DNA of 64,000 nt from Candidatus Krumholzibacteriia bacterium (GCA_041484665.1 JBGPIA010000002.1:42045-106044); one strand, 5' to 3'. Counted from the first letter of the stretch, positions 6,012-35,636 are shown. The notes: a model not told the origin generated them from the letters alone. Program-made: numbers and translations.

Positions 6012-6021
6012 GGTGGAGCCC

Positions 6022-10137: not shown

Positions 10138-10455
10138 GTCAGTTTACCGACCCCTCGCGGAATCTGGCGTATCGGGCCTTGGCCGGACACCGCGGCTCCG
10201 TACCCGTCGTAGCCAGTAACCAATTACCCCCTTTCAAGATACGCGTTCGTGCCTGGAAGTCGGTGCTCGCCGTTCGATGCGGCACGGGACTTGATGCTGT
10301 AGGGCTCTGCGTCGCCTGCGTGGCGCGCGACTTGCCGGGCGGCTCCTTCATCTTCGGTCTTCGACCAGCCATTGCCGGCACGCGGCCGCCGCGGACGACG
10401 CACAACTTCTACTTCCGGTCCGGCGCGCTCCAGTGCGCCGTGCGACCGCCGATCC

Positions 10456-10481
10456 GGCCCCGCGCCCTCCGTCGCGGGGCC
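10456..10481 (+). terminator. Perfect 9-bp GC hairpin (GGCCCCGCG-N8-CGCGGGGCC) followed by GTTTCGTT, abutting the -35 of the BMC promoter
   Basis: Seen directly in the sequence. It is terminator-like but lies 320 nt downstream of the nearest stop codon, so its function is unclear. Confidence 0.3.
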
Positions 10482-10487
10482 GTTTCG

Positions 10488-10517
10488 TTGACACCCGCGC
10501 GCGACCGCTGGTAGGGT
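10488..10517 (+). promoter_or_regulatory. Putative sigma-70-type promoter of the BMC operon (TTGACA-N18-TAGGGT)
   Basis: TTGACA at 10488-10493; TAGGGT at 10512-10517; ~85-nt GC-rich leader before the BMC-H start. Confidence 0.4.
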
Positions 10518-10600
10518 GCCTTTGTGCGTGCAGCCGCGCGCGCCCGCGCGGGCCGGCGTCACGCCAGCGGTCGCTCATCAGGCAAGGAGCAAGTACGGCG

Positions 10601-10891
10601 ATGAAGGAAGCTCTGGGGATGGTCGAGACGCGCGGCTTCGCCGCGATGGTCGAGGCGGCGGACGCCATGGTGAAGGCGGCCAACGTGGTGCTGATCGGCT
10701 ATGAGAAGATCGGCGCCGGCTACTGCACGGCGATCGTGCGCGGCGACGTCGCGGCGGTGAAGGCCGCCACCGATGCCGGCGCGGCGGCAGCGGCGAAGGT
10801 TGGCGAGTTGATCACCGTGCACGTCATCCCGCGCCCGCACACCAACGTGCAGGAGCGGTTGCCGATCGGCGGGGTCGCCGATGGCAAGTGA
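10601..10891 (+). CDS. Bacterial microcompartment shell protein, BMC-H hexamer (PduA/EutM/CcmK family)
   Basis: [60 protein letters not shown]...VHVIPRPH is a canonical Pfam00936 BMC domain. RBS AAGGAGC upstream. Confidence 0.9.
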
Positions 10892-10912
10892 CAGCGCGGG
10901 CAGGAACGACCC

Positions 10913-11200
10913 ATGCAGCTCGCCGAGGTGATCGGCACGGTGGTGGCCACGCGCAAGGAGCCGACCCTTGCCGGCATGAAGCTGCTCGTGCTCAAGGTGA
11001 TCGACCTGCAACGCCAGCCGCTGGGGCAGTATCTGGTGGCGGCCGACGCAGTGGGCGCCGGGACGAGCGAGATCGTTCTGTTCGCCGCCGGAAGCTCGGC
11101 CCGCCTCACCGAGATCACGAAGGACCGTCCGGTGGACGCCGTCGTGATGGCGATCGTGGACGCCCTCGAGGTAGGTGGCACGTTCCTCTACGAGAAGTAA
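10913..11200 (+). CDS. BMC vertex protein, BMC-P pentamer (EutN/CcmL/PduN family), copy 1
   Basis: MQLAEVIGTVVATRKEPTLAGMKLLVLKVID...YLVAADAVGAGTSEIVLFAAGSSAR...VDAVVMAIVDALEV matches the EutN/CcmL fold pattern. Confidence 0.85.
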   Translation: MQLAEVIGTVVATRKEPTLAGMKLLVLKVIDLQRQPLGQYLVAADAVGAGTSEIVLFAAGSSARLTEITKDRPVDAVVMAIVDALEVGGTFLYEK

Positions 11201-11297
11201 TCTGCAGCGCGACGGCACTCCGGGCGGGCGCCGCGCCGTCGACCGGTCTCCTCCCGCCGGCGCCCGGCGCCCGCGGACGCAAGGGCGGGCAGGCGCC

Positions 11298-12806
11298 ATG
11301 TCGCTGAGCGAAGAGCGCATCTCCGAGATCGTGCAGGCGGCGCGAGCGCGGGCGGGGCTTGACGCGCCGTTGCGCGCCCCGGCGGCGCACGCGCCGGCCG
11401 GCTCCGGCCCGGCCCACGGCGGCGAGGCCGGCGGCCTTGGCCGCTCGCTGCCCGGCGGCGGCCACGGGCCCGACAGCGCCATGCAGGGCATCTTCCCCAC
11501 GCTCGAGGAGGCGGTGCGCGCCGCGGCGCACGCCTTCGAGCAGTTCCGCGGCTTCCCGCTGGAATCGCGCAAGGCGATGATCGATTCGATCCGCCGCAAG
11601 CTGCGCGCGAATGTCGACCTGCTCGCGCGCCTGGCCGTGGAGGAGACCGGCCTGGGGCGCGCCGAGGACAAACGGGCCAAGAACCTCCTGGTGATCAACA
11701 AGTCACCCGGCCCGGAGATCCTCGTGCCCGAGTGCCAGACCGGCGACGATGGTCTGGTGCTCACCGAATGGGCTCCGTACGGCGTGATCGGCGCGATCAC
11801 CCCGGTGACCAACCCCAGCGAGACGGTGATCAACAACGGGATCGGGATGCTCGCCGCCGGCAACGCCGTCGTGTTCAACGGGCACCCCGGCGCCAAGGAC
11901 GTCACGCGGCTGGCGATCTCGCTGATGAACGAGGCAGCCCAGGAGGCCGGCGCGCCGCGCAACCTGCTCACCGCAGTGCGCGAGCCCACCATCGAGACGG
12001 CCCAGGCGCTCATGCGCCACCGGGACGTACGGTTGCTGGTGGTGACGGGAGGCGCGGCGGTGGTTAAGGCGGCGCTGCAGTCAGGCAAGCGCTGCATCAC
12101 GGCCGGACCCGGCAACCCGCCGGCCGTCGTGGACGAGACCGCCGATCTGGCGGCCGCCGCCCGCGACATCACGCTGGGGGCCTCCCTGGACAACAACATC
12201 ATCTGCACGGCCGAGAAGCTCGTGATCGTGGTCGAGGCGGTGCGCGACGCGCTGCTGCGCGAGCTAGGTAGACTGGGCAACGTGATCTTGCGCCAGGACC
12301 AGATCCCCCTGCTCTCCAAGGTAATCTTCGAGGAGATGGCGGGACCACGGCAGCGCGCCCGCATCGACCGGCAGTACGTGGGCAAGAACGCCCGCGTAAT
12401 CCTGGCCAAGCTCGGCATCCAGGCGACCGACAGCTGCCGGCTGGCGATCGTGCCGGTCGACAACGATCATCCGTTGCTGTGGACCGAGCAGATGATGCCG
12501 GTCCTGCCCGTCACCTCGGCGCCGGACGCTGAGACGGCCATGGATCTGGCCGTGGCCATGGAGGGGGGCAACCGGCACACGTTCATCATGCACAGCAAGC
12601 GTGTGGACCGTCTCAGCGCCATGGCGCGCAAGTGCGACGCGTCGATCTTCGTGAAGAACGGCCCGAACATCGCCGGGCTGGGCCAGGGCGGCGAGGGCCC
12701 CACGAGCTTCACCATCGCGACGCCGACGGGGGAGGGGATGACCGATGCCCGCTCCTTCTCGCGGCGCCGGCGCTGCACGTTGGTGGGCGAATTCCGCATC
12801 GTCTGA
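11298..12806 (+). CDS. CoA-acylating aldehyde dehydrogenase (EutE/PduP type) with an N-terminal encapsulation peptide
   Basis: ALDH core: GNAVVFNGHPGAKDV...NNIICTAEK (catalytic Cys). The N-terminus MSLSEERISEIVQAARARAGL is an amphipathic helix. It is followed by a ~45-residue Ala/Gly/Pro linker before the catalytic domain starts at MQGIFPTLEEAV. The track ORF starts at 11175, but the ATG at 11298 is the likely start. Confidence 0.88.
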   Translation: MSLSEERISEIVQAARARAGLDAPLRAPAAHAPAGSGPAHGGEAGGLGRSLPGGGHGPDSAMQGIFPTLEEAVRAAAHAFEQFRGFPLESRKAMIDSIRRKLRANVDLLARLAVEETGLGRAEDKRAKNLLVINKSPGPEILVPECQTGDDGLVLTEWAPYGVIGAITPVTNPSETVINNGIGMLAAGNAVVFNGHPGAKDVTRLAISLMNEAAQEAGAPRNLLTAVREPTIETAQALMRHRDVRLLVVTGGAAVVKAALQSGKRCITAGPGNPPAVVDETADLAAAARDITLGASLDNNIICTAEKLVIVVEAVRDALLRELGRLGNVILRQDQIPLLSKVIFEEMAGPRQRARIDRQYVGKNARVILAKLGIQATDSCRLAIVPVDNDHPLLWTEQMMPVLPVTSAPDAETAMDLAVAMEGGNRHTFIMHSKRVDRLSAMARKCDASIFVKNGPNIAGLGQGGEGPTSFTIATPTGEGMTDARSFSRRRRCTLVGEFRIV

Positions 12807-17101: not shown

Positions 17102-17485
17102 ATGACCAAGCCCGTGGGACTGGAGCGTCGCAGGGCCGAGCGCGTCAGCGCCCGTCTCAATCTGAACGTGCACCTGCGCTTGCCCGGATCGGGCGGCTCT
17201 GTGGACGACCTGGAGACCCTCAACGTGAGCAGCTCCGGGGTCTACTTCAAGAGCAGCCGCTTCATCGAGCCGATGACCAAGCTGGCGCTGCGCCTGGAAG
17301 TGCCCACCGAACGCGACGATCCCGACGTCACACGCCCGATCTCCTGCGAGGGGATTGTGGTGCGTACCCTCCCCGAGCAGCCGGACGAGTCCGTGGAGGC
17401 CTACGAGGTCGCGGTCTTCTTCACCACGATCGACGCCGAGAGCCTCCACAACCTGGAGAGCTACATCACCAACCTGCTGGCCTAG
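17102..17485 (+). CDS. PilZ-domain protein (c-di-GMP receptor)
   Basis: RxxxR motif (RRRAERVSAR) and (D/N)xSxxG motif (NVSSSGVYF) at the correct spacing. 127 aa. Confidence 0.75.
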   Translation: MTKPVGLERRRAERVSARLNLNVHLRLPGSGGSVDDLETLNVSSSGVYFKSSRFIEPMTKLALRLEVPTERDDPDVTRPISCEGIVVRTLPEQPDESVEAYEVAVFFTTIDAESLHNLESYITNLLA

Positions 17486-17593
17486 ACGCGGGCCGGCGCC
17501 GGGCCCGGGCGACCGCCCTGGCCCTTCCCGCTGTCAAGATCCGGCGCCTCGTGCCGATCCCCTGGTGGCCGAACAGTCTCTGGGGAGGGGTCC

Positions 17594-19090
17594 GTGGCGC
17601 ATACCCGCGAGCGCTATAGCGGTCGCCTGCTGGTCATCGACGACTCGGTGACGTTCTGCCGCCAATTCCAGCAGCTCCTGGAGCGGCTGGGATACCGCGT
17701 GGACGTAGCCCACGATCCGCGCAAGGGTCTGCAGTTCGTCCTGGCCGAGCCGGTCGATGCCGTGCTGCTCGAGAAGCACCTACCGGGCATGGACGGCTAC
17801 GCCCTGTGCCGCCTGCTCAAGAAGTACCCGCAGACGAGCGGGCTGCCGGTCGTCCTGCTCAGCAACGACGACGCCCTCAGCAGCCGCGTGGAGGGGCTGA
17901 GGGCAGGGGCTGACGAGTACCTGAGCAAGCGTATCTCCCCCGAGGAGCTCGACGGCCGGCTACAGTCGCTGCTGCGCGCGCAACGGCTGCGTGGCCAGAT
18001 CGAGGATCAGCATCAGCAGCTCATGGCCGTGCTGGAGGGACTCTCCGACGGCGTGATCCTGGTCGACCGCGACGGGGTGGCGCAGCTTGCCAACCGGGCC
18101 GCGCTGAGCCTGCTGCGCCTGGACCAGGACATCCTGCGCCTGCGCAGCATGCGTCAGATCCTCTCCACGCTGCGCTTCCCCCAGGCCCTGGCGGACCGGC
18201 TGCTGGCTACGGCCGAGCCGTTCACCGACGAGATCGAGGTGGAGATCGACGGGCAACCGCGCCTGCTGGCGGTGCGGTGCGCCCGGGTCACGCGCGCCGC
18301 TGGACAGGGGCTGCTGACCGTGCTGGTCCTGCAGGACGTCACCGAGCGCCGCGAGACCGAGCGCCTGAAAGCCGACTTCCATTCCATGATCGCCCACGAC
18401 CTGCGCAGCCCGTTGAGCGTGATCCAGGGTTACCTGTCGCTGTTGCTCAAGGAGAAGGCGGGCGCGCTGACGCCGCACCAGGAGGAGTTCCTGTGCAGCG
18501 TCCAGGAGAAGGTGTGGGACGTGAGCCGGCTGCTGGACGATTTCCTCGACATGTCGAAGCTCGACGCGGGCTGCATCGTGCTCGACCGCCGGCCGACCGA
18601 CCTGCGCATGCTGCTGTGCGCGTCGCTGCACGACGTGGCGCTCCTGGCGCGTGACCGGGGACTCACGACGCACCTGCGGATCGCGCCGCCGCTGGATGGA
18701 GCGCAGGTGGTGTGCGACGGCAGCCGCATCAAGCAGGTGCTCCAGAACCTCCTCAGCAACGCCGTGAAGTACAACCGCCTGCACGGCCGCATCGACGTCC
18801 GGGCGCGGCTGGAGGGCAACGAGCTGCTGGTCGAGGTGCAGGACGAAGGCATCGGCGTGCCGCCGGAGAAGCACCAGGAGATCTTCGAGCGCTACGTCCG
18901 GCTCAAGGAGGGGCCCGATGCTCCGGAAGGGCTGGGGCTGGGGCTGTTGATCGTGCGCAAGATCGTCGAGGCGCACGGCGGCCGCTCGGGGGTCCGCAGC
19001 GCCGCCGGCGAGGGCGCCACGTTCTGGTTCACGCTGCCCGCCGAGCTCCCGGCGTGCGAAGTCCCGCTGGAGCCACAGCTCACGGGCTGA
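17594..19090 (+). CDS. Hybrid two-component protein: N-terminal receiver - PAS - HisKA - HATPase_c histidine kinase
   Basis: REC: LLVIDDS...VLLEKHLPGMDGYAL...VVLLS. PAS: LEGLSDGVILVDRDG. H-box: MIAHDLRSPLS. N/G boxes: LLSNAVKYN...GLGLGLLIVRKIVEAHGG. Confidence 0.8.
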   Translation: MAHTRERYSGRLLVIDDSVTFCRQFQQLLERLGYRVDVAHDPRKGLQFVLAEPVDAVLLEKHLPGMDGYALCRLLKKYPQTSGLPVVLLSNDDALSSRVEGLRAGADEYLSKRISPEELDGRLQSLLRAQRLRGQIEDQHQQLMAVLEGLSDGVILVDRDGVAQLANRAALSLLRLDQDILRLRSMRQILSTLRFPQALADRLLATAEPFTDEIEVEIDGQPRLLAVRCARVTRAAGQGLLTVLVLQDVTERRETERLKADFHSMIAHDLRSPLSVIQGYLSLLLKEKAGALTPHQEEFLCSVQEKVWDVSRLLDDFLDMSKLDAGCIVLDRRPTDLRMLLCASLHDVALLARDRGLTTHLRIAPPLDGAQVVCDGSRIKQVLQNLLSNAVKYNRLHGRIDVRARLEGNELLVEVQDEGIGVPPEKHQEIFERYVRLKEGPDAPEGLGLGLLIVRKIVEAHGGRSGVRSAAGEGATFWFTLPAELPACEVPLEPQLTG

Positions 19091-23682: not shown

Positions 23683-24242
23683 GCCCGCCGCCGATGCACG
23701 GCCTGTGCTTGCCGGCGGGCGCGCCCGGCGCCGCCCCAGGCCCCGGGCCCTCCGCGGTCCGCGCCGTGGGCGCCGCGGCGAATGCAGAGGTGCGCGGCGG
23801 GCCGCCGGCGCCGGTGGACCCGCGCCTGCACGCCGCAGCCCAGGACTTCGAGGGGCTGCTGCTGAACCTGCTGCTGTCGGCCATGCGTCAGACCGTTCCG
23901 CGCGGCGCGCTGTTTGGCAATAGCAACGAGCTGCGCATGTACGAGCAATTGCGCGACGAGGATCTCTCCGCCGGGATGGCCCGCGCGGGCGGGCTGGGTC
24001 TGGCACCGCTCATCGAGCAGCAGCTGGCCGGCCAGCCCGCTGCCGCGCAGCAGCTACGCGTGGCGCTGGCCGCCGCGCACGACGCAGGACGGCGGTCGTT
24101 GGTCCTGGATGCCGCGGGGCGCAGCCCCGCGCTGGCGCCCGCCCCCGCGGTGGGCGCGCCGGCGCTGTCGGCGGCTGCGCTCGCGCTTGCGCCCGACCCG
24201 GACCCAGACCAGGACGCGCCCGGAGCGGATGCGCCATGGTAG
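23679..24242 (+). CDS. flgJ: FlgJ-like rod-binding protein (N-terminal Rod_binding domain only; no muramidase domain)
   Basis: AAAQDFEGLLLNLLLSAMRQTVPRGALFGNSNELRMYEQL matches the FlgJ N-terminal rod-binding motif. 187 aa. Confidence 0.6.
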   Translation: MSPPPMHGLCLPAGAPGAAPGPGPSAVRAVGAAANAEVRGGPPAPVDPRLHAAAQDFEGLLLNLLLSAMRQTVPRGALFGNSNELRMYEQLRDEDLSAGMARAGGLGLAPLIEQQLAGQPAAAQQLRVALAAAHDAGRRSLVLDAAGRSPALAPAPAVGAPALSAAALALAPDPDPDQDAPGADAPW

Positions 24243-24745
24243 CCCCGTCGCCTTTGGCGCTGGACGCGCTGCTGGCCGCCACCGAGGACGAGACCCGCGC
24301 CTTCGCCGGCTTGTTGCGCCTGGCTCACCGGCAGCGCCGCTACATGGTGCGCCAGGACGTCCGGCGGCTGGCCACGGTCGCCGAGGCGATCGCCGCCCGC
24401 GTGCTGCGGGCGCGGGAAGTCGCGGCGCGGCGGCAGGCCGCGCTGCAGGAGATAGCGGCCGGACTGGGCCGCCCGCCCCACGAGATCGAGCTTCAGCAGC
24501 TGGCGCCGGGGGCCGAAAACCCTCAGCGGGTCCGCTTGGAGGCCGCTCTGCGCCGGCTGTCCGAGGTGGGTGGGCGGCTCTACCGGGCGAACACGCAGAA
24601 TCACCTGCTCGCCCGCTTCTCCCTGGACCTGCTCGCCGAGCAGCAGCGCCTGGTGCTGGGGGAGACCGGTGCAGCAGGCCACTACGATTGCAGCGGTGCG
24701 GCGACGCGCCCCGCCGCCCGGGGCGCCATCGACGGGAGGGCCTAG
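24236..24745 (+). CDS. FlgN-like flagellar export chaperone (all-helical, Gln/Leu-rich)
   Basis: The position immediately upstream of flgK/flgL matches the Bacillus flgN-flgK-flgL arrangement. The helical-repeat composition matches, but there are no strong motifs. Confidence 0.4.
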   Translation: MVAPSPLALDALLAATEDETRAFAGLLRLAHRQRRYMVRQDVRRLATVAEAIAARVLRAREVAARRQAALQEIAAGLGRPPHEIELQQLAPGAENPQRVRLEAALRRLSEVGGRLYRANTQNHLLARFSLDLLAEQQRLVLGETGAAGHYDCSGAATRPAARGAIDGRA

Positions 24746-26163: not shown

Positions 26164-27690
26164 ATGCGGATCACGCAGTCCCAATTGGCGCAGCAGGCGG
26201 TCTTCGACATCGGCCAGGCGCTCAGCCGTCTGACCGAGTACCGGCTGCAGCTCTCCTCCCAGCGGCGGATCAACAGCTTCGCCGACGATCCGCGCGGCGT
26301 CGGTGCCGCGCAGCGCTACCGCATCCTCACCTCGAGCAACGACCAGTACCTGCGCAACGCGTCCAGCGCGACGACCTTCCTCGATGCCACGGACAGCGCC
26401 CTGCAGCAGATGGCCGACGCCGTCAGTGGTCTGCGCGAGCTGGTGCTGCGCCAGACGGGACCGGTGGCCAACGATCAGACGCGCTCGGCGGCCGCCGGAG
26501 AGGCGGCGCAGCTGCGCGACCAGGTGCTGGCGATCGTCAACCAGACCGTCGAGGGCGGCTACCTGTTCGGCGGCTTCCGCACCCGCAACGCACCATTCGT
26601 GCTGCAGGGCGGTCAGGTGACCTACGCCGGGGACGACGGCGTCCAGATGGTCCAGATCGGACCGACGCTGCGCGTGATGGCAAACCTGCCGGGCAGCGCG
26701 CTGCTGGGCAGCGACCACGCGGCGCTGTCGGGCAGCGTCGACCTGCGGCCGCGGCTGGCCGGCACGACGCTCCTGACTTCGATGGGCGGCGGTGCGGGGT
26801 TCTCCGGAGGCTCCCTCCACGTTACCGACGGCCTGGGCGCTGGCGCCGACATCAACTTGAGCGGAGCGGCCACGGTGCAGGACGTGCTGGACGCCTTCAA
26901 CGGCTCCGGCCTGGCCGTGACGGCCCGCATCTCCGACGATGAGACCGGGATTACGCTGGAGGGCAGCGGGTCGCTCACGGTGGCCGAGGTGGCGGGAGGC
27001 AGCGCTGCCCAGCAACTGGGGCTGCTGGGCACCACATCCAGCGGAGCGCTGGTCGGGCGCGACGTCCGCGCCGCGCTCACGCTGGCCACCCCCTGGGCGC
27101 AGATGCGGGCGCTGGACGGCAAGTCGCTCGGGACGCTGCGCATCATCATCGGTGGCGTCGCAACCGACGTCGATCTGAGCGCAGCGGCCAACCTGGGCGA
27201 TGCGCGCAACGCCATCCGGGCGCTGAATCCCGACATGGACCTGCAGATCGACCGCGGCGCGGTGCGCCTGGTCTACGCCCAGGCCAAACCGTTCCAGGTG
27301 TCCAGCCCCAGCGGCGACACCACGGCGGATGCCCTGGGCGTGGTGGGCAACGCGACCCCCACGCGCCTGTTCGGAGCGTTCGCGGACGTGATCGCCGCGC
27401 TGCAATCCGGCGACGTGTCCGCTCTCCGGCAGACGCTCGCCGAGATCGAGGACGTGCACGCCGGGTTGTTGCGTCAGGATGTGTCGATCGGCGCGCATCA
27501 GAACCTCGTGGCGAACGCCGGCCAGCTGCTGCGCGCCCGCAACGAGTCGCTGCAGCTGCGCCGCAGCTCCATTGAGGACGCCGATCTGGTGGACGCTGCC
27601 ACGAATGCGTCGTTCGCGGAGGCCGCCTATCAAGCGGCGCTGGCCGCCAGCTCGCGCATCTTCAACCTGTCCCTGGCCAGCTACCTCTAG
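26164..27690 (+). CDS. flgL: Flagellar hook-associated protein 3, FlgL (flagellin-like termini)
   Basis: MRITQSQLAQQAVFDIGQALSRLTEYRLQLSSQRRINSFADDP...; C-terminus ...AYQAALAASSRIFNLSLASYL. Confidence 0.85.
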   Translation: MRITQSQLAQQAVFDIGQALSRLTEYRLQLSSQRRINSFADDPRGVGAAQRYRILTSSNDQYLRNASSATTFLDATDSALQQMADAVSGLRELVLRQTGPVANDQTRSAAAGEAAQLRDQVLAIVNQTVEGGYLFGGFRTRNAPFVLQGGQVTYAGDDGVQMVQIGPTLRVMANLPGSALLGSDHAALSGSVDLRPRLAGTTLLTSMGGGAGFSGGSLHVTDGLGAGADINLSGAATVQDVLDAFNGSGLAVTARISDDETGITLEGSGSLTVAEVAGGSAAQQLGLLGTTSSGALVGRDVRAALTLATPWAQMRALDGKSLGTLRIIIGGVATDVDLSAAANLGDARNAIRALNPDMDLQIDRGAVRLVYAQAKPFQVSSPSGDTTADALGVVGNATPTRLFGAFADVIAALQSGDVSALRQTLAEIEDVHAGLLRQDVSIGAHQNLVANAGQLLRARNESLQLRRSSIEDADLVDAATNASFAEAAYQAALAASSRIFNLSLASYL

Positions 27691-27717
27691 GCGGCGCTTC
27701 TAGAGCGAAAGGACGCC

Positions 27718-28206
27718 ATGCGCATCGAGACGCTGCGCTTTGGAACACTGGAGATCGATCCGGCTGTGCTGATCACGCTGCCGTCGGGCCTGATCGGCTT
27801 GCCGCAGCGCAAGCGCTTCGTGGTGCTCGAGCTGGAGGGTGGCGCGCCGCTTGGCTGGCTGCAGTGCGTCGACGACCCGTCGTTCGGCGTGCCGGTGGCC
27901 GATCCCGGGGTCTTCCGTGCCGACTACCGCATCGCAGTCGCGGCGGAGGAGGTCGCCGAGATCACACTCGACACCGTCGAGGACGCCGCGATCCTGATCG
28001 TGACGACCATCGCGCCCGGTGGCACGCAGGTCACGGGCAACCTGCGCGCGCCCATCCTGATCAACGCGCACAAGCGCCTCGGGCGCCAGGTGGTGCTCGA
28101 CCGCCCCGACCTGGAGTTCCGCGTGCCCGTGGACCCGGTGCTGTTCGCCGCCGCCAGCGGCCGGTTCGAGCCGAGCCTCGCCGCCGCGCCGGCCGCCGCA
28201 CGCTAG
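27718..28206 (+). CDS. fliW: Flagellar assembly factor FliW (CsrA antagonist)
   Basis: MRIETLRFGTLEIDPAVLITLPSGLIGLPQRKRFVVLELE matches the FliW N-terminus. Confidence 0.88.
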   Translation: MRIETLRFGTLEIDPAVLITLPSGLIGLPQRKRFVVLELEGGAPLGWLQCVDDPSFGVPVADPGVFRADYRIAVAAEEVAEITLDTVEDAAILIVTTIAPGGTQVTGNLRAPILINAHKRLGRQVVLDRPDLEFRVPVDPVLFAAASGRFEPSLAAAPAAAR

Positions 28207-28242
28207 CCCCAGCCCCCGCGCACCCGCGACAGGGAGGTCGTG

Positions 28243-28521
28243 GTGCTCGTCCTGAGTCGCAAGCGCAACGAGAAGATCATGATCGGCGACTCGATCACGA
28301 TCGTCGTGCTCGACGTCCACGGCGACCAGGTGCAACTGGGAATCGACGCGCCGCGGGAGATCCCTGTCCACCGCTACGAGATCTACCAGACGATCCGCCG
28401 CGTCACGGAGGAGGCGGCGCGCTCGGCGCGGGAGGATCTGGAGCGGCTCAAGCCGAAGGGACCCGACACGCCCGCCGCGCCACCGTCTTTGGCCGACGAC
28501 TCCGCGCCGGGGGAGCGCTAG
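28243..28521 (+). CDS. csrA: Carbon storage regulator CsrA
   Basis: (M)[47 protein letters not shown] is canonical CsrA. The alternative GTG at 28240 has poor RBS spacing. Confidence 0.9.
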
Positions 28522-28868
28522 ACGCGCTGATCGAGCAGCTCGGGCGAGCTGTGGGCTTCGCGCCAGGGATTGCCGCGGCGTGCCCGCAGCGCGCCCAGCG
28601 CGGCGACGATCTCCGCCTTGCCCACCACCAGCATCCCCAGCAGCTCATTCTCCAGCGCGCGCAAGGAGGCTCCCAGCGCGGCGTCCGCGGGATCCGGTGC
28701 CGCGCCCGACGCGCGGGCGCCCTCCGCAGCGGCCAAGAGCGCGCCACGGGCCTCCAAGAGCGTCGCGCAGGCCGGCAGATCGCCCGCCCGCGCACAGTCC
28801 AGCATCCGCTGGGTGAGCTCGACGGCTCGCCGCACTGGCGCGTGCGGGCTGCCGGGGTGCGCGCTCAT
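28518..28868 (-). CDS. FliT-like flagellar chaperone (hypothetical; downstream of fliS)
   Basis: 116-aa helical protein in the fliD-fliS-(fliT) position. No diagnostic motif. Confidence 0.4.
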
Positions 28869-29311
28869 GCGCGCAGCGACAGCCCCGCGTGCTCGGCGAT
28901 GGAGGCCGGCGCCGCGGCGGGCAGGGGCGGGGGTGCTTGCTCGAGGCAGTCGATCGCCTTGCGCCAGCCCGCCAGCAGGGTGCTCAGGACCTCAATTGCG
29001 GCGCGCAGCGGTTTCGCATCGTTGCCTACGTTGGCCAGGGCGAGCTGGCGATCGACGAAGTCATAGAGGGCGGCCAGGCGCTCCGCGAGCTCGCCGCCCA
29101 CCTCGTGGTCGAGGGCGTTGCGCAGCTCGTGGACGATGCGGCTCGCGCGGTTGATCATCATGCCGCGCTGCGGGATGTCGCCCTGGGCGATGGCCTGCGC
29201 GGCGTGCTCGGCGAAGCGGATGGCCCCCTCGTAGAGCAGCACGATCAGTCGCTGTTGGGACTGCGTCTCCACGTTGGTCTCGTGGTAGATCGCGACGTGG
29301 TTCGCGTACAT
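28865..29311 (-). CDS. fliS: Flagellin-specific chaperone FliS
   Basis: ...QQRLIVLLYEGAIRFAEHAAQAIAQGDIPQRGMMINRASRIVHELRNAL matches the FliS family. Confidence 0.85.
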   Translation of the reverse strand: MYANHVAIYHETNVETQSQQRLIVLLYEGAIRFAEHAAQAIAQGDIPQRGMMINRASRIVHELRNALDHEVGGELAERLAALYDFVDRQLALANVGNDAKPLRAAIEVLSTLLAGWRKAIDCLEQAPPPLPAAAPASIAEHAGLSLRA

Positions 29312-29377
29312 CGACCCGTCCTTCTGCCGGCATCGTCCCCGCGAGCGGACGCGCCGATCGCTTCCGACTCGCGCCGC

Positions 29378-30706
29378 CTAGCCGGTGGTCGACCTGGAGC
29401 TCAGGAAGCTGCTCTGGGCCTGCAGCCCGCTGATGATGCTCTCCATCGCGGCGAACTTGCGCCTGAGGTACTCCTCGTAGTCGCTGGCGCTCTGCTCCTG
29501 CCGATTGATCGTCTGATCGAGCTGCTTGATCCGCTCGTTCATGGAGTCGGTGCTGTTCTTGAACAGGCCGCTCGCGAGATCGGTGATGCTGCCGATGGCC
29601 GTATCCATCTGGGCCGCCATGCCCGAGACGCCGCCCTCGGACACGAACAGCCGGACGGCGCTCTCGAAGTCCTTGCCGAGCGCGTCGTCTAGCTTTTGGC
29701 TGTCGATCTTGAGGGTGCCATCGTTCTCGAGCTTGAGGCCCACGTCGCCCACGATGCGGAAGTCCCCACCGGTTGCGACGACGCCGATCGTGATGCCACC
29801 CAGCGTGTTTTGCACCGTGCGCAGCAGCGAGTCGCCCTGCAACGTGCTGCCCTTCGCCGACTGGTCGTTGATCAGCTTGACCACATCGTTGTAGGCGCTG
29901 ACGAAGTCCTGCAGCTTGGTCTTGAGCGCGGCATCGTTGCGGCCAACGCCGAGGATCACCGGTTCGGTATCCAGCGTGTCCTTCTTGAGCGTGAGGGTCA
30001 CGCCATCGATCGCTCCGGCGATGGTGTTGGATGCGCTGGTGACGGTGATGCCATCGATGTCGAGCTCCGCGTCGGCCGCGCTCACGGTTTCGCTGAAGGC
30101 GGGGACCGTTCCACCGCTCAGGCCGCTGGCATCGAAGGTGATGGCGTTGGCCTGCCCCGTCTGCTTGCCCGTGACCACGAGACGGTAGGGGTTGGTGCCG
30201 CCCACATTGATGATCGAGGCCGTCACCGCGGCGCCGCTCTGGTTGAGCTTGTCGCGCAGATCGGTCAGGGCGCTGGCGCCCAAGTCGAGGGTGACGGTGG
30301 TGGTGGTGCCGTCGATGGTCAGCTTGAAGGTGCCGGCGCCGACGCTGTTACTGACGGCCGCGAAGCCCTGGCTGATGCTACGCTCGGCCGTGGCCAGCTG
30401 CACGACGTCGATCTCGTAGCTGCTCATGGCAGCGCCGGTGGTGGCCGTGGCCGTGAGCGATGTCTCGTCACTGCTCGAGGCGGTGGTGCTCACGAACTCG
30501 GCGCGCGTATCCAGCGCCTTGGCCTTGTCGCGCAGCGCCAGCAGCTTGCTCTTGAGGCTGTCGAGGATGGTCTGGCGCTTGCCCAGTTGGGTCTTGGTGT
30601 TCTGGAGGGTCGTGATGGGCTGGCGGCGCAGCTCCATCAGCTTCGTGATGATCAGATTGGTGTCCAGGCCGCTGGCCAGGCCGCCGAATGTGACGGGCGA
30701 GGGCAC
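29378..30706 (-). CDS. fliD: Flagellar filament cap protein FliD
   Basis: N-terminus (V/M)PSPVTFGGLASGLDTNLIITKLMELRRQPITTLQNTKTQL; C-terminus ...EEYLRRKFAAMESIISGLQAQSSFLS. Confidence 0.88.
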   Translation of the reverse strand: MPSPVTFGGLASGLDTNLIITKLMELRRQPITTLQNTKTQLGKRQTILDSLKSKLLALRDKAKALDTRAEFVSTTASSSDETSLTATATTGAAMSSYEIDVVQLATAERSISQGFAAVSNSVGAGTFKLTIDGTTTTVTLDLGASALTDLRDKLNQSGAAVTASIINVGGTNPYRLVVTGKQTGQANAITFDASGLSGGTVPAFSETVSAADAELDIDGITVTSASNTIAGAIDGVTLTLKKDTLDTEPVILGVGRNDAALKTKLQDFVSAYNDVVKLINDQSAKGSTLQGDSLLRTVQNTLGGITIGVVATGGDFRIVGDVGLKLENDGTLKIDSQKLDDALGKDFESAVRLFVSEGGVSGMAAQMDTAIGSITDLASGLFKNSTDSMNERIKQLDQTINRQEQSASDYEEYLRRKFAAMESIISGLQAQSSFLSSRSTTG

Positions 30707-30768
30707 GGTGATTCCTCCTGGGCTCTAAGCCGGCGTGCGCGCTCTACCTAGGCGCCGCTGCGCCCTGT

Positions 30769-31101
30769 TCAGCTCTTGCCATCGAACAGCAGACCGCGCA
30801 GCGATTCCAGCTGGGCCGCCACATCCAGGAGCGCCTGGGGCGGGATCTGCTCGATCACCTGGTCGGTCGTGCCGTCGATGATCTCGAACACGTAGCGCGC
30901 GGCGCTTTCGTCGTAATGGACCCGCACGCCCTTGCCTTCCGAACGTGGCCGTTCGTCCTGGGCACGCTGCTCCGCCACCGACGGCGCGGGGGTGGCGGCG
31001 GGTCCCTCCGCTGCGGACGCGCCGTGGGCTTGGGGGCCGATGGTCGGGTGGGGGGCCGCCACCTGACCGCTGAGGCGGGGCATGACGCTGAGGCTGTTCA
31101 T
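30769..31101 (-). CDS. flaG: FlaG-family flagellar protein
   Basis: ...VHYDESAARYVFEIIDGTTDQVIEQIPPQALLDVAAQLESLRGLLFD matches the FlaG C-terminal pattern. Confidence 0.7.
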   Translation of the reverse strand: MNSLSVMPRLSGQVAAPHPTIGPQAHGASAAEGPAATPAPSVAEQRAQDERPRSEGKGVRVHYDESAARYVFEIIDGTTDQVIEQIPPQALLDVAAQLESLRGLLFDGKS

Positions 31102-31125
31102 CTCGTCCCTCCTGGCCGAAGGCGG

Positions 31126-31151
31126 CCCCCGGGCCCTGGCGGGCCCGGGGG
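31126..31151 (-). terminator. Perfect 11-bp GC hairpin (CCCCCGGGCCC-GCCA-GGGCCCGGGGG on the mRNA strand) between the fliC stop and the flaG start; likely partial terminator/attenuator
   Basis: Seen directly. It has no U-tract and lies 23 nt after the fliC stop. Confidence 0.4.
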
Positions 31152-31173
31152 GAGTCGGACCGCAGCCAACGTG

Positions 31174-32016
31174 TTAGCGCAGCAGAGCCAGGGCAGCCTG
31201 GGGAACCAGGTTGGCCTGGGCCAGCACGGAGATGCCCGCCTGGTTCAGCACCTGCAGCGACGTCATCTTGGCGGCCTCCTCGGCCACATCCACGTCACGG
31301 ATCCGCGAGTTGGCGGCCGTGAGGTTCTCCACCGAGATCCCGAGGTTGCGCACCGTCGACTCCAGACGGTTCTGGACGGCACCGAACGAGGCGCGGGTCC
31401 TGGAGATGCTGGTCAGCGCGGTCTCGATCTTGGCGATGGCAGCCAGCGCGTTGGTGGCGTTGCTGCCCGTCAGGCTGACCGTCGTCCCCGGGGTCAGGCC
31501 CAGGGCCGAGGCGCTGATCGTGGTCGTGAAGGCGACCGAGATGCGGTCGTTGCTCGTGTTGCCGGTGCCGACCTGCAGGTCGATCGTCCCGCCCTGGCCG
31601 TCCAGCAGCTTGGCGCCGTTGAAATCGGCGGTGGCGCCGATCCGCGTCACTTCAGCCAGCAGCGCCTGGAACTCGTCGTCGAGGAAGCCGCGCTCCGCCG
31701 ATCCGACCGTTCCGTTCGCCGCCTGCTCCGAGAGCTCGCGCAGGCGGATCATCATGCTGCTGACTTCGTTCAGGCTGCCTTCTGCAGTCTGGACCATCGA
31801 GATGCCGTCGTTCGCGTTGCGGGACGCCTGCTGGAGGGCCCGGACATCGCTGCGCAGGCTCTCGCTGATCGCCAGCCCAGCGGCGTCGTCACCCGCGCGA
31901 TTGATGCGCAGGCCGCTGCTGAGCTTCTCCAGCGACTTGCCCAACATCACGCCCGTGTTGTACAGGTTGCGCTGCGCGTTGATGGAGGCAACGTTGGTGT
32001 TTACCCGCAGTCCCAT
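31174..32016 (-). CDS. fliC: Flagellin (280 aa)
   Basis: MGLRVNTNVASINAQRNLYNTGVMLGKSLEKLSSGLRINRAGDDAAGLAISE...; C-terminus ...KMTSLQVLNQAGISVLAQANLVPQAALALLR. AAGGAGG RBS. The track ORF is extended to 32154. Confidence 0.92.
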   Translation of the reverse strand: MGLRVNTNVASINAQRNLYNTGVMLGKSLEKLSSGLRINRAGDDAAGLAISESLRSDVRALQQASRNANDGISMVQTAEGSLNEVSSMMIRLRELSEQAANGTVGSAERGFLDDEFQALLAEVTRIGATADFNGAKLLDGQGGTIDLQVGTGNTSNDRISVAFTTTISASALGLTPGTTVSLTGSNATNALAAIAKIETALTSISRTRASFGAVQNRLESTVRNLGISVENLTAANSRIRDVDVAEEAAKMTSLQVLNQAGISVLAQANLVPQAALALLR

Positions 32017-32122
32017 GTCTTCCTCCTTGAAGGTGGGCGAGGGTCCGATTCCGAACTTCGCTCGCAGGGGGCGCTGCCGGTCCGTGGCGTCTCCCCCCGG
32101 GGCGGTCGTCGTTGTGCCCGGG

Positions 32123-32149
32123 ATATCGGCCGGGGGCGGTCGGACTTGA
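32123..32149 (-). promoter_or_regulatory. Sigma-28 (FliA)-type promoter for flagellin: TCAAGTCC-N11-GCCGATAT
   Basis: The reverse complement matches the TAAAGTTT-N11-GCCGATAA consensus with exact spacing. The ~100-nt leader carries several GGA motifs (CACGGAC, UCGGAAUCGGAC, CAAGGAGGAAG), the last overlapping the Shine-Dalgarno sequence. Confidence 0.55.
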
Positions 32150-32195
32150 GCCACAGTTTCGGCGCGGCACGGGCCTTGAGAGGGCCTTCCCCGGC

Positions 32196-33104
32196 ATGTC
32201 CGTCGCCGCCGTCACCCTCGCGCTGCGTCGCGCCCAGGCGCGGGACTACGAGGCCGTTCTGGCCCTCGTGGACGCCGCGTTCGGGGTAGCGCCCAAGGCA
32301 TCCCTGCGGCAGACGTTTCCCACCGCGCTAGGAAGATCCAACCTCTCCGGCCTGTTCGTGGGCGAGCACGAAGGCCAGCTGGTGTGCGCCGGCGCGGCGC
32401 TGGTGCGCGACTGGGTCACCTCCGCGGGGGTGCTGCGGACGGCCTGCTTGGGCTGTTTCGCGACGGCACCCGCGCACCGCGGGCGCGGGCACAGCTCCCG
32501 CCTGCAGGAGTGGATGCTGCAACAGATGAAGGACGACGGGGCCGACTGGGCCGTGCTCTTCACCGACCGTCCCTGGATCTACCGCGGGCGCGGCTTCGCG
32601 CCGGCCGGGCACGAGCGGCTGGGGTGGCTGGAGCCAGCCGTCTGGCCTGCGCTGCCGGCCGGTGCCCACCTGCGCCAGGCCGAAGCGGCGGACGCCGCGG
32701 CCATCCTGCATCTCTACGCGGAGCATCCCTACCGCGCGGCGCGCAGCGAGGGCGACCTGGCGGTCCACCTCGATCCGGCCGTCAGCCGCGTGCTGGTGCT
32801 GGAGGAAGCCGGCACCGTCGCCGCCTACGTGGCCATCGGCAAGGGCGTTGACTTTCCCGCCACCGTGCACGAATACGGCGGCAGCCCGTCGCACGTGCAC
32901 GCCTTGTGGGGCTGGGCGGTGCGCGCGGAAGGAGCGCGGGCGGTGCTGTTGCCGCAAGGCACAGAGCGTTACCTCACGGGTCCCGCGGCAGGCATGCCCG
33001 GCCGTCCGCAGTCGGCGGCGCAGGCTCGCGTCCTGCGCCCACAGCGAGTGCGCGGGGGTCTCGATCGGCTGCAATGGGCAGCCTGGGGGTTCGACTCGGC
33101 ATGA
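32196..33104 (+). CDS. GNAT-family N-acetyltransferase (two acetyltransferase-like halves)
   Basis: ...FATAPAHRGRGHSSRLQEWMLQQMKDDGADWAVLFT... (acetyl-CoA binding-like R/Q-x-x-G-x-G/A). It is divergent from fliC. ATG at 32196. Confidence 0.65.
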   Translation: MSVAAVTLALRRAQARDYEAVLALVDAAFGVAPKASLRQTFPTALGRSNLSGLFVGEHEGQLVCAGAALVRDWVTSAGVLRTACLGCFATAPAHRGRGHSSRLQEWMLQQMKDDGADWAVLFTDRPWIYRGRGFAPAGHERLGWLEPAVWPALPAGAHLRQAEAADAAAILHLYAEHPYRAARSEGDLAVHLDPAVSRVLVLEEAGTVAAYVAIGKGVDFPATVHEYGGSPSHVHALWGWAVRAEGARAVLLPQGTERYLTGPAAGMPGRPQSAAQARVLRPQRVRGGLDRLQWAAWGFDSA

Positions 33105-34756
33105 GTGCGCAAGACGGCGGCGGCGGGCCTCGGCTCTCCGTGTGCATGATCGCGCGCAACGAGGCCGCCATCCTCGGCCAGGCGCTGGAGTCGGTGCGCT
33201 CGCTGGCCGATGAGATCGTCGTGGTGGACACCGGCAGCGAGGACGATACGGCGCAGCTTGCCCGTTCGCTGGGGGCGGTGGTGGCCCATTTCCCGTGGAC
33301 CAACGACTTCAGCGCCGCGCGCAACGCCTCGCTGCAGGCGGCCACCGGCGATTGGGTGCTGATCCTGGACGCCGACGAGCTGATCCAGGAGCAGGACCAC
33401 GCGCTGATCGCCGCCCTGCTGCGCGGCCCGCGTACGGCGGCCTACATGCTCGAGCAACGCAGCTACACCGATCGCACCGATGTCCTGGATTGGATCCCCA
33501 ACGACGGGCGCCATTCTGGCAGCTGCGCGTACGCGGGCTACGTGAGCATCTGGCAGGTGCGCCTGGTGCCACGCGACCTGCGCGTGCGCTACGCGGGCGC
33601 GGTGCACGAGGAGACGGACGCCAGTCTGCGTGCCGCCGGCTACGCCATCGAGCACCGTCCGATCGTCGTGCACCATTTCGGCAAGGTGCGCGAAGCGGCG
33701 GTGATGGCGCGCAAGCAGGAGCTCTACACCCGCCTGGGCGAGCAGAAGGTCCTGCACAGCCCCCAGAGTCCGCGCGCTCTTTACGAGCTGGCGGTGCAGT
33801 ACGCCGAGGTGGGGCGCCGCGACGAGGCCCAGGCGGCCCTGGAGCGCTTTCTCACGATGGGGGCCGAGCCCTTCTTTCGGGGGCGCGCCGCCGCCATCCT
33901 CGGGCAGCTCTACCTGCAGCGCGGCGAGCCTGCCCGCGCCGTTGACGTGCTGGAGCGCGGCGTGCGCGAGCATCCCGTCCTGGTGAGCCTCTGGCATACG
34001 CTGGCCCACGCGCTGGATCAGTCGGGACAGCGCGCGCGCGCCGTGCTGGTCCTCGAGCAGGCCCTCGCCATCTTCGAGGACCACGTGACGCTGCGCGCCT
34101 ACCTGGGGATGCTCTATCTGGAGTTGCGCCAGTGGGACGTCGCCCACGCCTGCTTCACGGCCGTGCGCGAGCGCTTCCCGGCCAGCCCCGCGGCGCGCGC
34201 GGGGCTCGCGCTGCAGCCGCTGTTGCGGCGCGGGGTCGCGGGTCTGACGCTGGCCCGGCCGTGGCTGCAGGAGACATCCGCTGCGCAGCGCCAGACCATT
34301 GCGCAGATGCTGGTGCGCGCGGGCCAGACGCCGGCGGCCCTCGCCGTGCTGCTCGACGCCTCTGCGGCGGACCGGGCGGCGCTGCTGCCGGAGCTGGAGC
34401 GCGTCGCCGGCTGCGCCGGCGATCCGTGGAGCGCGGCCGCGGCCGCCTGCGCTCGGTCGCTGCACGAAACGCTCACAGGAGCGGAACGGGCGGCGACGGC
34501 GCGCCGGTGGCTTGGCGCTTCGACGTTGGGCAGCGGTCTGGCCCTGCTCCATCCGGCGGGGGAGGTCGAGCCGGGCTTGTTGGGCCTGCGCGCGGCCGCG
34601 CTGGCGCGGCTGGGGTGCCCGGCGCTCGCGCGGGCCGGGCTGTCCGCGCTGCGCGCCCGGCCGGGCTGGGCCGATGCCGCCGACCGGATCCTGGCCACGC
34701 TGCCCAGCGGCGCACCCGCGAGCCCGGGGTCAAGCCGCGGAGCCTCCGGCCGATAA
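33101..34756 (+). CDS. Family-2 glycosyltransferase with a C-terminal TPR-repeat domain
   Basis: GT2 N-terminus LSVCMIARNEAAILGQALESVRSLADEIVVVDTGSEDDTAQLAR...WVLILDADE. Long Ala/Leu TPR-like repeats follow. It has an ATGA overlap with the GNAT gene. Confidence 0.75.
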   Translation: MSAQDGGGGPRLSVCMIARNEAAILGQALESVRSLADEIVVVDTGSEDDTAQLARSLGAVVAHFPWTNDFSAARNASLQAATGDWVLILDADELIQEQDHALIAALLRGPRTAAYMLEQRSYTDRTDVLDWIPNDGRHSGSCAYAGYVSIWQVRLVPRDLRVRYAGAVHEETDASLRAAGYAIEHRPIVVHHFGKVREAAVMARKQELYTRLGEQKVLHSPQSPRALYELAVQYAEVGRRDEAQAALERFLTMGAEPFFRGRAAAILGQLYLQRGEPARAVDVLERGVREHPVLVSLWHTLAHALDQSGQRARAVLVLEQALAIFEDHVTLRAYLGMLYLELRQWDVAHACFTAVRERFPASPAARAGLALQPLLRRGVAGLTLARPWLQETSAAQRQTIAQMLVRAGQTPAALAVLLDASAADRAALLPELERVAGCAGDPWSAAAAACARSLHETLTGAERAATARRWLGASTLGSGLALLHPAGEVEPGLLGLRAAALARLGCPALARAGLSALRARPGWADAADRILATLPSGAPASPGSSRGASGR

Positions 34757-34828
34757 CCACCACGCTGGGACGGGGCAGCCGCGCGGACACGCCGCGCGCT
34801 GATTCCCTCGCCCGGCCGAGGTGGGACG

Positions 34829-35155
34829 GTGAACTCGAAGGTGGCTCTGCTCCAGCAGGTGCTGGCCGTCGCGCGGCGCCAAGTCATGGCGTTTGCCGAG
34901 ATGGACCTGGATTTGCTAGAGCGGCTTGCGCAGGAGCGAGCCGATCTGTCGCGGCGCCTGGATTGCCTGGCCGAGCTGCCGGCGGCGTCGGCCGAGGGCG
35001 CCGACGTGCCCACCGCGCGCCTGCTCCACGAGATCCACGACGTCGACCTGCAGCTCAAGGACGGGATCGACGCCCGGATCCGCGACTGCACGCGACGGCT
35101 GCAGCAGCTCACCTGGCGGGTGCAGGATCTCGCCGCGCCGGCGCTGGCGCGCTAG
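34829..35155 (+). CDS. Small helical protein upstream of flgM (possible FlgN/FliT-like flagellar chaperone)
   Basis: 108 aa with coiled-coil composition and position next to flgM. No diagnostic motif. Confidence 0.35.
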   Translation: MNSKVALLQQVLAVARRQVMAFAEMDLDLLERLAQERADLSRRLDCLAELPAASAEGADVPTARLLHEIHDVDLQLKDGIDARIRDCTRRLQQLTWRVQDLAAPALAR

Positions 35156-35198
35156 ACTGGGCTGCGGCATGCGGACGCAATCTGGCATGGAGGAGAGC

Positions 35199-35636
35199 AT
35201 GGCCACCCAACCGATTCCTGGCCAGGGCCCGGTGCAACCCAGCCAGATGCGGACCTCCGCGCAGAAGGGGGACGCGGCGGCGACGCCCGCGGTTCCCGTG
35301 GATGCCCCGGCCAGGTCGCCCGAGGCAGCGCCGGGCAAAGCCGCGCCGCCGAGCACCGACCGCGTCGAGATCTCCCCCGAGGCGCGCCGCCTGCTGGAGA
35401 TCAACGATGTGCTGCGTTCCGGCCGTGGCGCTCAGGACGAGCAGCCCGAGGTCCGCGAAGAGCGCTTGCGCCAGGTGCGCCAGCGTCTGGACGCCGGCGT
35501 GTACCAGACGGGCGGCGTCCGCGAGGAGCTCGCCCACCGCCTGACTCCGGTGCTGCGCGGCATGGACGCCCTGCTGGCCGCCCACGACGAGTCACCCGAC
35601 GAGGACAGCGCGTCCGCTGATCCGCCGAAGGGCTGA
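35199..35636 (+). CDS. flgM: Anti-sigma-28 factor FlgM
   Basis: ...VEISPEARRLLEIND...EERLRQVRQRLDAGVYQTGGVREELAHRL is the characteristic FlgM C-terminal region. GGAGGAG lies 5 nt before ATG 35199. Alternative in-frame ATG at 35187. Confidence 0.75.
   Translation: MATQPIPGQGPVQPSQMRTSAQKGDAAATPAVPVDAPARSPEAAPGKAAPPSTDRVEISPEARRLLEINDVLRSGRGAQDEQPEVREERLRQVRQRLDAGVYQTGGVREELAHRLTPVLRGMDALLAAHDESPDEDSASADPPKG

Follow-up and report, generated by a model that had tools for sequence, protein, structure and literature searches.

Gene content and conservation of the fliW-csrA-fliC region

We analyzed a 64,000-nucleotide stretch of DNA from Candidatus Krumholzibacteriia bacterium (GCA_041484665.1 JBGPIA010000002.1:42045-106044), hereafter called the window, which has a G+C content of 70-73% and carries a large flagellar gene cluster. 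Our subject is the part of that cluster in which fliW, csrA and the flagellin gene fliC lie close together, and which an earlier interpretation (the sequence-only reading) had described as a complete FliW-CsrA-flagellin partner-switch module. Pfam matches place fliW, csrA, fliS, fliD, flaG and the flagellin gene where that reading had put them (see the table below). The open reading frame (ORF) that it had called fliT-like scores only E=0.024 against FliT when searched alone, which is sub-threshold, yet seven of eight aligned sequences (the window ORF and seven orthologues) match the FliT family PF05400, the best at 1e-7, and the label is therefore a fair one. The layout is likewise as had been proposed, fliW and csrA being adjacent and convergent with the gene block that begins with fliC. 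The two genes follow flgN-flgK-flgL and are separated by a 33-nt spacer, and fliC itself is 3.5 kb away. The stop codons of csrA and the fliT-like ORF overlap by 4 nt (28518-28521) with no terminator between them, and interference between the two convergent transcripts could occur.

Useful relatives of this region (64-77% identical) were obtained by protein search and contig look-ups; scans of genome and metagenome contig collections with the flagellin returned only sequences of at most 55% identity (Nannocystaceae, Thalassospira) with unalignable leaders. An identical flagellin is also present on metagenome or metagenome-assembled genome (MAG) contigs (GCA_041496785.1, JGI 3300052992 and Logan runs). 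The nearest other flagellins are 73-77% identical and the nearest CsrAs 57-81% identical over the aligned part, and all of the flagellin and CsrA homologues that are named below the level of "bacterium" belong to Candidatus Krumholzibacteria or Krumholzibacteriia; flagellins of Nannocystaceae MAGs, at 52% identity, are more distant, and a Myxococcota origin, to which these had initially pointed, is rejected. The full gene arrangement recurs in every related contig that is long enough to show it, and in two contigs that end past fliC the upstream side agrees with the window. Adjacency of fliW and csrA, at a spacing of 33-50 nt, is kept in every relative, and the fliW/csrA/fliC neighbourhood is also found in the 52%-identical Nannocystaceae MAGs. 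In a set of MAGs labelled Nannocystaceae or Myxococcales (L001-L006) the order is flgK-flgL-csrA-fliW, accompanied by two to four flagellin genes, fliD and fliS, a gene set that, as read from these assemblies, is flagellar potential in a group classically regarded as gliding; their flagellin Shine-Dalgarno (SD) regions have CCACGAAGGAAC in common.

The fliC promoter and leader

The near-consensus FliA promoter that had been reported upstream of the flagellin gene, TCAAGTCC-N11-GCCGATAT, is present exactly as described. On the minus strand its -35 element TCAAGTCC occupies 32149-32142 and its -10 element GCCGATAT occupies 32130-32123, with an 11-nt spacer between them, and the strand reads CTCAAGTCC-GACCGCCCCCG-GCCGATAT from 32149 to 32123. 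The pattern TMAAG-N14-GCCGATA has two exact matches in the 64 kb against 0.01 expected, and none of 100 shuffles reaches two; GCCGATA by itself occurs at chance frequency (4 matches, 3.1 expected). One match precedes fliC and the other the flgM region, the two archetypal sigma-28 targets. The -10 element agrees with the B. subtilis form at 8/8 positions and the -35 element with the enteric consensus TAAAGTTT at 5/8, and the fliC promoter has the architecture TAAA-N15-GCCGATAA/T. In ten related leaders, which are 88-154 nt long, the element stands at the same place with CCGAT invariant and with CT[CA]AAG at an 11-12 nt spacing (a statement that covers the leaders other than L038-L040, whose -35 part lies outside the stretch taken). 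A clade-specific sigma-28 promoter consensus, CT[CA]AAG-N14/15-(G)CCGATA, can be offered. The anti-sigma-28 factor FlgM (PF04316) is encoded nearby, and elements like the sigma-28 type also precede flgM in the relatives. No sigma-70-like promoter was found in a scan of 27500-35300, and fliA is not within the window, which stops just after flhA. From the promoter's position, transcription of fliC is predicted to start near A32115. A further motif, CTCTCAAG(N)CCCGTRCC at 32160-32185 on the minus strand (about -163 from the fliC ATG), is kept in the divergent spacer between fliC and the neighbouring GNAT gene of close relatives and overlies the 5' region of the latter.

A start near A32115 would give fliC a leader of about 99 nt with six GGA motifs, two of them inside an AAGGAGG sequence 7 nt before the ATG. 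GGA accessibility was estimated by partition-function folding. The GGA at -67 from the ATG (32083-32081) has an unpaired probability of 0.99-1.0 and is displayed in the heptaloop ACGGACC of an upstream hairpin whose local fold is worth -17.5 kcal/mol, and the two GGAs of the SD are partly open; at -78 and -30 the GGA is paired, and at -36 half-paired. Of the six, only two look functional, the remainder lying in stems, and it is the position of these two, not the number of GGAs, that is the meaningful signal.

A window-type loop GGA arises in only 7% of shuffled leaders. Among the ten related leaders, nine have a loop GGA with an unpaired probability above 0.8, L031 falling narrowly below (0.78-0.94), and nine have an A-N-GGA loop hairpin, carried on at least eight different stem sequences. 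The shuffle background for a loop GGA is 3-13% in the close group and 10-36% for L035, L036 and L037c; in random 111-nt windows of the same genome it is 6.75%, and 0.75% when A-N-GGA is required. Since the ten leaders are related they are not independent trials. Their stems differ, which argues for selection on structure, and the upstream hairpin is kept as a structure and not as a sequence: GGGGA-ACGGA-UCCCC in L029, GGGGA-AAGGA-UCCCC in L032, CCAGG-GAAGGAUU-CCUGG in L038, CGGGC-AAGGAUC-GCCCG in L031, GACCC-GAUGGAAU-GGGUC in L030, GCGAA-ACAAUGGAC-UUCGC in L034, GAUGGAC-AAGGAC-GUCCAUC in L036, GGCGGCCA-UGGA-UGGCCGCC in L037b and GGUCGGGC-AGGGAU-GUCCGACC in L037c.

The second candidate site, the SD hairpin, is a 14-mer identical in all close relatives. 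In L036 it becomes CUUC-ACGGAG-GAAG and in L035 UUUC-ACGGAG-GAAA, the latter a compensatory C-G to U-A change. The sequence TCAAGGAGGA (as RNA, UCAAGGAGGA) at the fliC SD fits the CsrA/RsmE consensus WCANGGANGW, and the same is true of ACAGGGAGGT (ACAGGGAGGU) at csrA; like the hcnA-type SD hairpins bound by RsmE/CsrA (consensus A/U-CANGGANG-U/A), UCAAGGAGGA and ACAGGGAGGU have a short stem and a 6-nt GGA loop. The consensus that SELEX (systematic evolution of ligands through exponential enrichment) yields is RUACARGGAUGU, typically in a 6-nt loop on a stem of at most 4 bp (PMC7652899). The fliC SD hairpin resembles it; the predicted sites here differ from it in having G, part of the SD GGAGG, and not U after the GGA. 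Hairpins of 4 bp with an ANGGAN hexaloop number eight in the 64 kb (5.7 expected), and only those of fliC and csrA lie at a ribosome-binding site or start codon. The ribosome-binding sites of fliW and flaG were considered as well; their CsrA-type hairpins are not conserved in the relatives, and we make no claim for them. Rfam finds no RNA family in the leader or in the rest of the window except two tRNAs, and in particular no Csr/Rsm-type decoy RNA, though a decoy could lie elsewhere. One relative, L037, has three tandem flagellin genes (3756-6837), of which copies 2 and 3 have a sigma-28-type promoter and a CsrA-type leader and copy 1 has neither, a pattern that suggests that its flagellin paralogues are differentially controlled.

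The proteins, the csrA hairpin and neighbouring features

The best Protein Data Bank matches of both regulators come from one structure, the Geobacillus FliW-CsrA complex. FliW matches its FliW chain, 5DMB_A, at E=1.1e-17, with NLRAPILINAHKRLGRQVVL aligned to NLQAPIVINVHKRLGKQVIL, and CsrA matches its CsrA chain, 5DMB_D, over 71 residues. The FliW motif NLxAPxxIN...GxQ is kept with N108, A111 and Q124, and G122 and R123 are as in Geobacillus or conservatively replaced. In CsrA the RNA-binding residues L4, R6, K7, V42, R44 and I47 are kept. The protein also has a C-terminal extension: it is 92 aa long, its 120 closest homologues have 79-113 aa, and the gammaproteobacterial form, as in E. coli, has about 61 aa. 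The flagellin can be aligned over its full length with B. subtilis Hag (6GOW_D), and its Asn231, in VENLTAANSRIRD, is as far from the C terminus (49 residues) as Hag N255 and FlaB N287 are from theirs. To our knowledge flagellins from species without FliW carry this Asn as well, so that it does not discriminate. FliW binding requires this residue in B. subtilis, T. pallidum and B. burgdorferi (PMC12327847).

The csrA ribosome-binding site is itself enclosed in a hairpin, CGCGAC-AGGGAG-GUCGUG, of the CsrA type. At -8.2 kcal/mol (z=-3.74) it is more stable than any of 200 shuffles, and ACAGGGAGGU is one position off the SELEX core ACARGGAUGU. Its core, GAC-A[AGU]GGAG-GUC, is kept in eight relatives, in which the rest of the fliW-csrA spacer varies. 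The relatives' sequences show no compensatory changes in this hairpin, so the evidence for it is one of conservation. The relatives' CsrA begins MLVLSRK, and the csrA start is likely the second GTG, at 28243. Such a site suggests that CsrA may repress its own translation through the hairpin. E. coli CsrA reportedly represses its own translation, likewise from a CsrA-type site that overlaps the csrA ribosome-binding site; here, by comparison, there is one strong hairpin of 6 bp, which takes the first GUG into its stem as well and lies within a FliW-type system. We know of no CsrA autoregulation described in FliW-type systems, and the csrA hairpin is a testable candidate for it.

Other features of the cluster bear less directly on flagellin control. 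Just 3' of the fliC stop lies a hairpin of G+C pairs, within a 75-nt fliC-flaG spacer that folds at -44.9 kcal/mol (z=-2.67); a similar inverted repeat can be read (it was not folded) 3' of fliC in all relatives. A standard consensus terminator scan of 27500-35300 returned nothing relevant and misses this hairpin, which lacks a T run. The hairpin probably marks the 3' end of the fliC transcript or serves as an attenuator between fliC and flaG. Past fliC, on the divergent side, come genes for a GNAT acetyltransferase and a GT2/TPR glycosyltransferase (32196-34756, plus strand), which separate fliC from flgM in all relatives as they do in the window and may encode flagellin modifiers; then flgM, a histidine kinase and a sigma-54 activator; and still farther flgBC, fliEFG, flgDE, fliM and flhBA. 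Pfam also identifies flgF, flgG, flgA, flgH, flgI and a rod-binding flgJ-like gene in the cluster. The presence of FlgH and FlgI (L and P rings) confirms a diderm-type flagellum. A sigma-54-type element, TGGACCTGGATTTGCT at 34902-34917 (plus strand), also precedes flgM and is kept about 90 nt 5' of flgM in relatives. In the window it sits within orf108 (34829-35155, 108 aa, no Pfam match), which may be spurious or an insertion, since the relatives have no called gene between the glycosyltransferase gene and flgM. Elsewhere, 17102-19090 (plus strand) encodes a PilZ-domain protein and a hybrid receiver-PAS histidine kinase directly 5' of flgF, with a weaker sigma-28-like match (one mismatch) at 17534-17559 ahead of that kinase, and 10433-12806 (plus strand) holds a bacterial microcompartment locus with a BMC-domain shell protein, EutN/CcmL and an aldehyde dehydrogenase.

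Table. Positions in the window of the genes, promoters and RNA hairpins discussed.
Feature	Position	Strand	Description
flgN	24236-24745		Pfam match
flgL	26164-27690		Pfam match; flgK lies between flgN and flgL
fliW	27718-28206	+	162 aa; PF02623, E=3.6e-30
csrA hairpin	28225-28242	+	CGCGAC-AGGGAG-GUCGUG over the csrA ribosome-binding site; candidate CsrA autoregulation site
csrA	28243-28521	+	92 aa from the second GTG (93 aa from GTG 28240); PF02599, E=1.6e-23
FliT-like ORF	28518-28868	-	116 aa; last gene of the fliC-flaG-fliD-fliS block; no Pfam match at default thresholds
fliS	28865-29311	-	flagellin export chaperone; PF02561, E=4.1e-35
fliD	29378-30706	-	filament cap; PF02465 and PF07195
flaG	30769-31101	-	PF03646, E=1.5e-11
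hairpin 3' of fliC	31126-31151	-	11 bp, G+C, without U tract; just 3' of the fliC stop
fliC	31174-32016	-	flagellin, 280 aa, D0/D1 only; PF00669 Flagellin_N and PF00700 Flagellin_C
SD hairpin of fliC	32019-32032	-	CUUC-AAGGAG-GAAG; 4-bp stem, hexaloop; overlaps the SD; predicted CsrA site 2
upstream leader hairpin of fliC	32066-32098	-	33 nt; heptaloop ACGGACC; predicted CsrA site 1
fliC promoter	32123-32149	-	sigma-28 (FliA) type, TCAAGTCC-N11-GCCGATAT; by motif and conservation
second sigma-28-type promoter	34730-34755	+	TCAAGCCG-N11-GCCGATAA; 5' of orf108 and flgM

The probable partner switch and its alternatives

The genes, their order, the promoter motif with its conservation and the conserved RNA hairpins are all directly visible in the DNA. 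Synteny, the conserved promoter, the SD hairpin, the A-N-GGA loops and the 5DMB matches make a Bacillus-type partner switch, as the sequence-only reading had proposed, the best reading of them, and we consider it probable that the locus encodes a working FliW-CsrA-flagellin partner-switch circuit. In the mechanism that we infer, including its binding events, its transcription start and its direction of regulation, a FliA (sigma-28)-type promoter would transcribe fliC into an mRNA whose leader is about 99 nt long, and a CsrA dimer would occupy both the ACGGA heptaloop hairpin (about 67 nt 5' of the ATG) and the SD hexaloop hairpin CUUC-AAGGAG-GAAG, blocking ribosome access. While flagellin is exported, FliW would be free to inhibit CsrA and fliC would be translated; when flagellin builds up, it would take up FliW, and CsrA would then stop fliC translation.

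This is the Hag-FliW-CsrA switch that has reportedly been worked out in B. subtilis, where the order of the region is flgM-flgN-flgK-flgL-fliW-csrA-hag. The window has the same three proteins, the same flgN-flgK-flgL-fliW-csrA order next to the flagellin gene, a sigma-D/sigma-28-type promoter with an identical -10 element, GCCGATAT, and, as in Bacillus and Geobacillus, the CsrA C-terminal extension, FliW Q124, N108 and A111 and the flagellin Asn. It differs from Bacillus in that the flagellum is of the diderm type (FlgH, FlgI), an inverted fliC block converges with csrA, the DNA is 71% G+C, CsrA has T for N55 and P for D41, FliW has I for P26 and V for F58, the CsrA tail is longer and Pro-rich, and a CsrA-type hairpin encloses the csrA ribosome-binding site. 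The B. subtilis mechanism has been described (Oshiro 2019, PMC6529632; PMC7652899), and the hag leader likewise has two GGA stem-loops, one of them over the SD (PMC13443453).

A novelty that had been implied for a Gram-negative-type flagellar system does not hold, as the FlaA-FliW-CsrA switch has been demonstrated experimentally in Campylobacter jejuni (Dugar 2016, PMC4894983) and the switch likewise in Helicobacter pylori (PMC11905337), and FliW-CsrA and FliW-flagellin interactions have been reported from Geobacter sulfurreducens (PMC13407953) and Borrelia burgdorferi (PMC12327847). C. jejuni resembles the window in its Gram-negative flagellum and sigma-28-dependent major flagellin, and the flaA 5' untranslated region has two ANGGA-loop stem-loops, the second over the ribosome-binding site (PMC4894983). 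In both, a third GGA is the second codon (AUG GGA) and compensatory changes in relatives back the structure; here, in contrast, the leader is about 99 nt and not 45 nt long, 57 nt and an extra hairpin separate the two sites, and the phylum is a different, Krumholzibacteria-like one. The C. jejuni CsrA presumably keeps N55.

Several observations weigh against a working switch. The leader had been called GGA-rich, and that part of its description does not survive: 5' of the SD there are four GGAs against 3.0 in dinucleotide shuffles (P=0.34), and the same holds for most relatives. Because this count is not significant against shuffles we have dropped richness as evidence. The stability of the whole leader is not unusual (z=-0.38). 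The SD hairpin is weak, at -2.9 kcal/mol locally, with 38 of 200 shuffles folding equally well, and when the whole leader of the window is folded as an ensemble, the GGAs of the SD reach an unpaired probability of only 0.45-0.86. A strong, conserved AAGGAGG might be no more than an efficient ribosome-binding site of a protein made in large amounts. The 57 nt between the sites lie towards the long end of the distance that a CsrA dimer reportedly bridges. At the protein level, CsrA position 55 (codon at about 28405-28407) is T and not N, and in the same clade the FliW cluster near N55 is altered, with I or V for P26 and V or L for F58 (I and V in the window). CsrA N55, which contacts FliW Q124, is reported to be required for FliW binding and to be invariant wherever the two proteins are found together (10.1101/2020.07.02.184341). 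Finally, a random-forest model with an accuracy of about 0.7, from a domain-wide survey that already included Krumholzibacteriota CsrAs, predicts that few of these would repress B. subtilis hag (PMC13443453); this is a mild caveat on heterologous, not native, function.

One alternative, which we regard as unlikely, is that fliC is no CsrA target. AAGGAGG would then be a plain strong ribosome-binding site, CsrA would act on other mRNAs, FliW would be only a flagellin assembly factor, and the upstream hairpin would have some other role, for example 5' mRNA stabilization or the binding of another factor. The chance-level GGA count and ordinary leader structure, the energetically marginal SD hairpin, the lost N55 contact and the published expectation for Krumholzibacteriota CsrAs would all follow; the invariant CUUC/GAAG flanks of the SD with their compensatory change in L035, the recurrence of the A-N-GGA loop in 9/10 leaders on differing stems against a 0.75% background, and the preservation of fliW-csrA adjacency beside fliC across distant lineages would not.

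Less probable again is a version in which CsrA represses fliC and FliW, serving mainly flagellin, does not control it in the Bacillus manner, the FliW-CsrA contact having been lost or replaced; an unseen decoy RNA, or autoregulation of CsrA on its own, are examples of what might stand in for it. The strong CsrA-type hairpin at the csrA ribosome-binding site, the altered equivalents of FliW P26 and F58, and the residue at CsrA position 55 are in its favour; of the 120 closest homologues, 113 have T or S there (T 103, S 10) and 7 have N, and the more distant Nannocystaceae CsrAs retain N. Against it, FliW keeps Q124, N108, A111 and its whole NLxAPxxIN...GxQ motif, the CsrA C-terminal extension is present in all homologues, fliW and csrA stay 33-50 nt apart in every relative, and the window has no Csr/Rsm-type decoy RNA by Rfam, though one is possible elsewhere. 

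Our own reading is that the FliW-CsrA interface has been remodelled yet retained, because Thr or Ser can still hydrogen-bond Gln, the genes stay adjacent and the CsrA extension is kept. The T55 clade is a natural counter-example to an "invariant" CsrA N55 and should be useful for dissecting the interface. It is conceivable, if rather doubtful, that this lineage combines such a rewired interface (T/S55; FliW I26, V58) with CsrA self-repression through the conserved CGAC-ARGGAG-GUCG SD hairpin, which is built like that of fliC; if so, the three-node flagellin homeostat would become a four-node circuit that also sets the level of CsrA.

That the promoter match is fortuitous and sigma-70 or sigma-54 drives fliC from a shorter or longer leader is very improbable, for although the -35 element fits the enteric form at only 5/8 positions, fliA is outside the window and the first flagellin copy of L037 has no such motif, the two exact matches at fliC and flgM, the position and spacing kept with an invariant CCGAT in ten related leaders, the scan negative for sigma-70-like promoters in 27500-35300 and the nearby gene for FlgM all speak for sigma-28.

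The partner switch remains our preferred reading, and under it the locus is a further copy of the known FliW-CsrA-flagellin feedback circuit, by which flagellin production is adjusted to the building of the flagellum, and no new kind, with the minor variant features of T55, an inverted fliC block, a long leader and a possible autoregulatory hairpin. It leaves the understanding of the FliW-CsrA system itself unchanged, and would carry a well-studied checkpoint of post-transcriptional control over to an uncultured candidate phylum, in a very G+C-rich genome and alongside a flagellum of the diderm type. The FliW-CsrA switch is considered ancestral to flagellated bacteria, and the locus supports the view that control of flagellin together with FliW is the ancestral role of CsrA.

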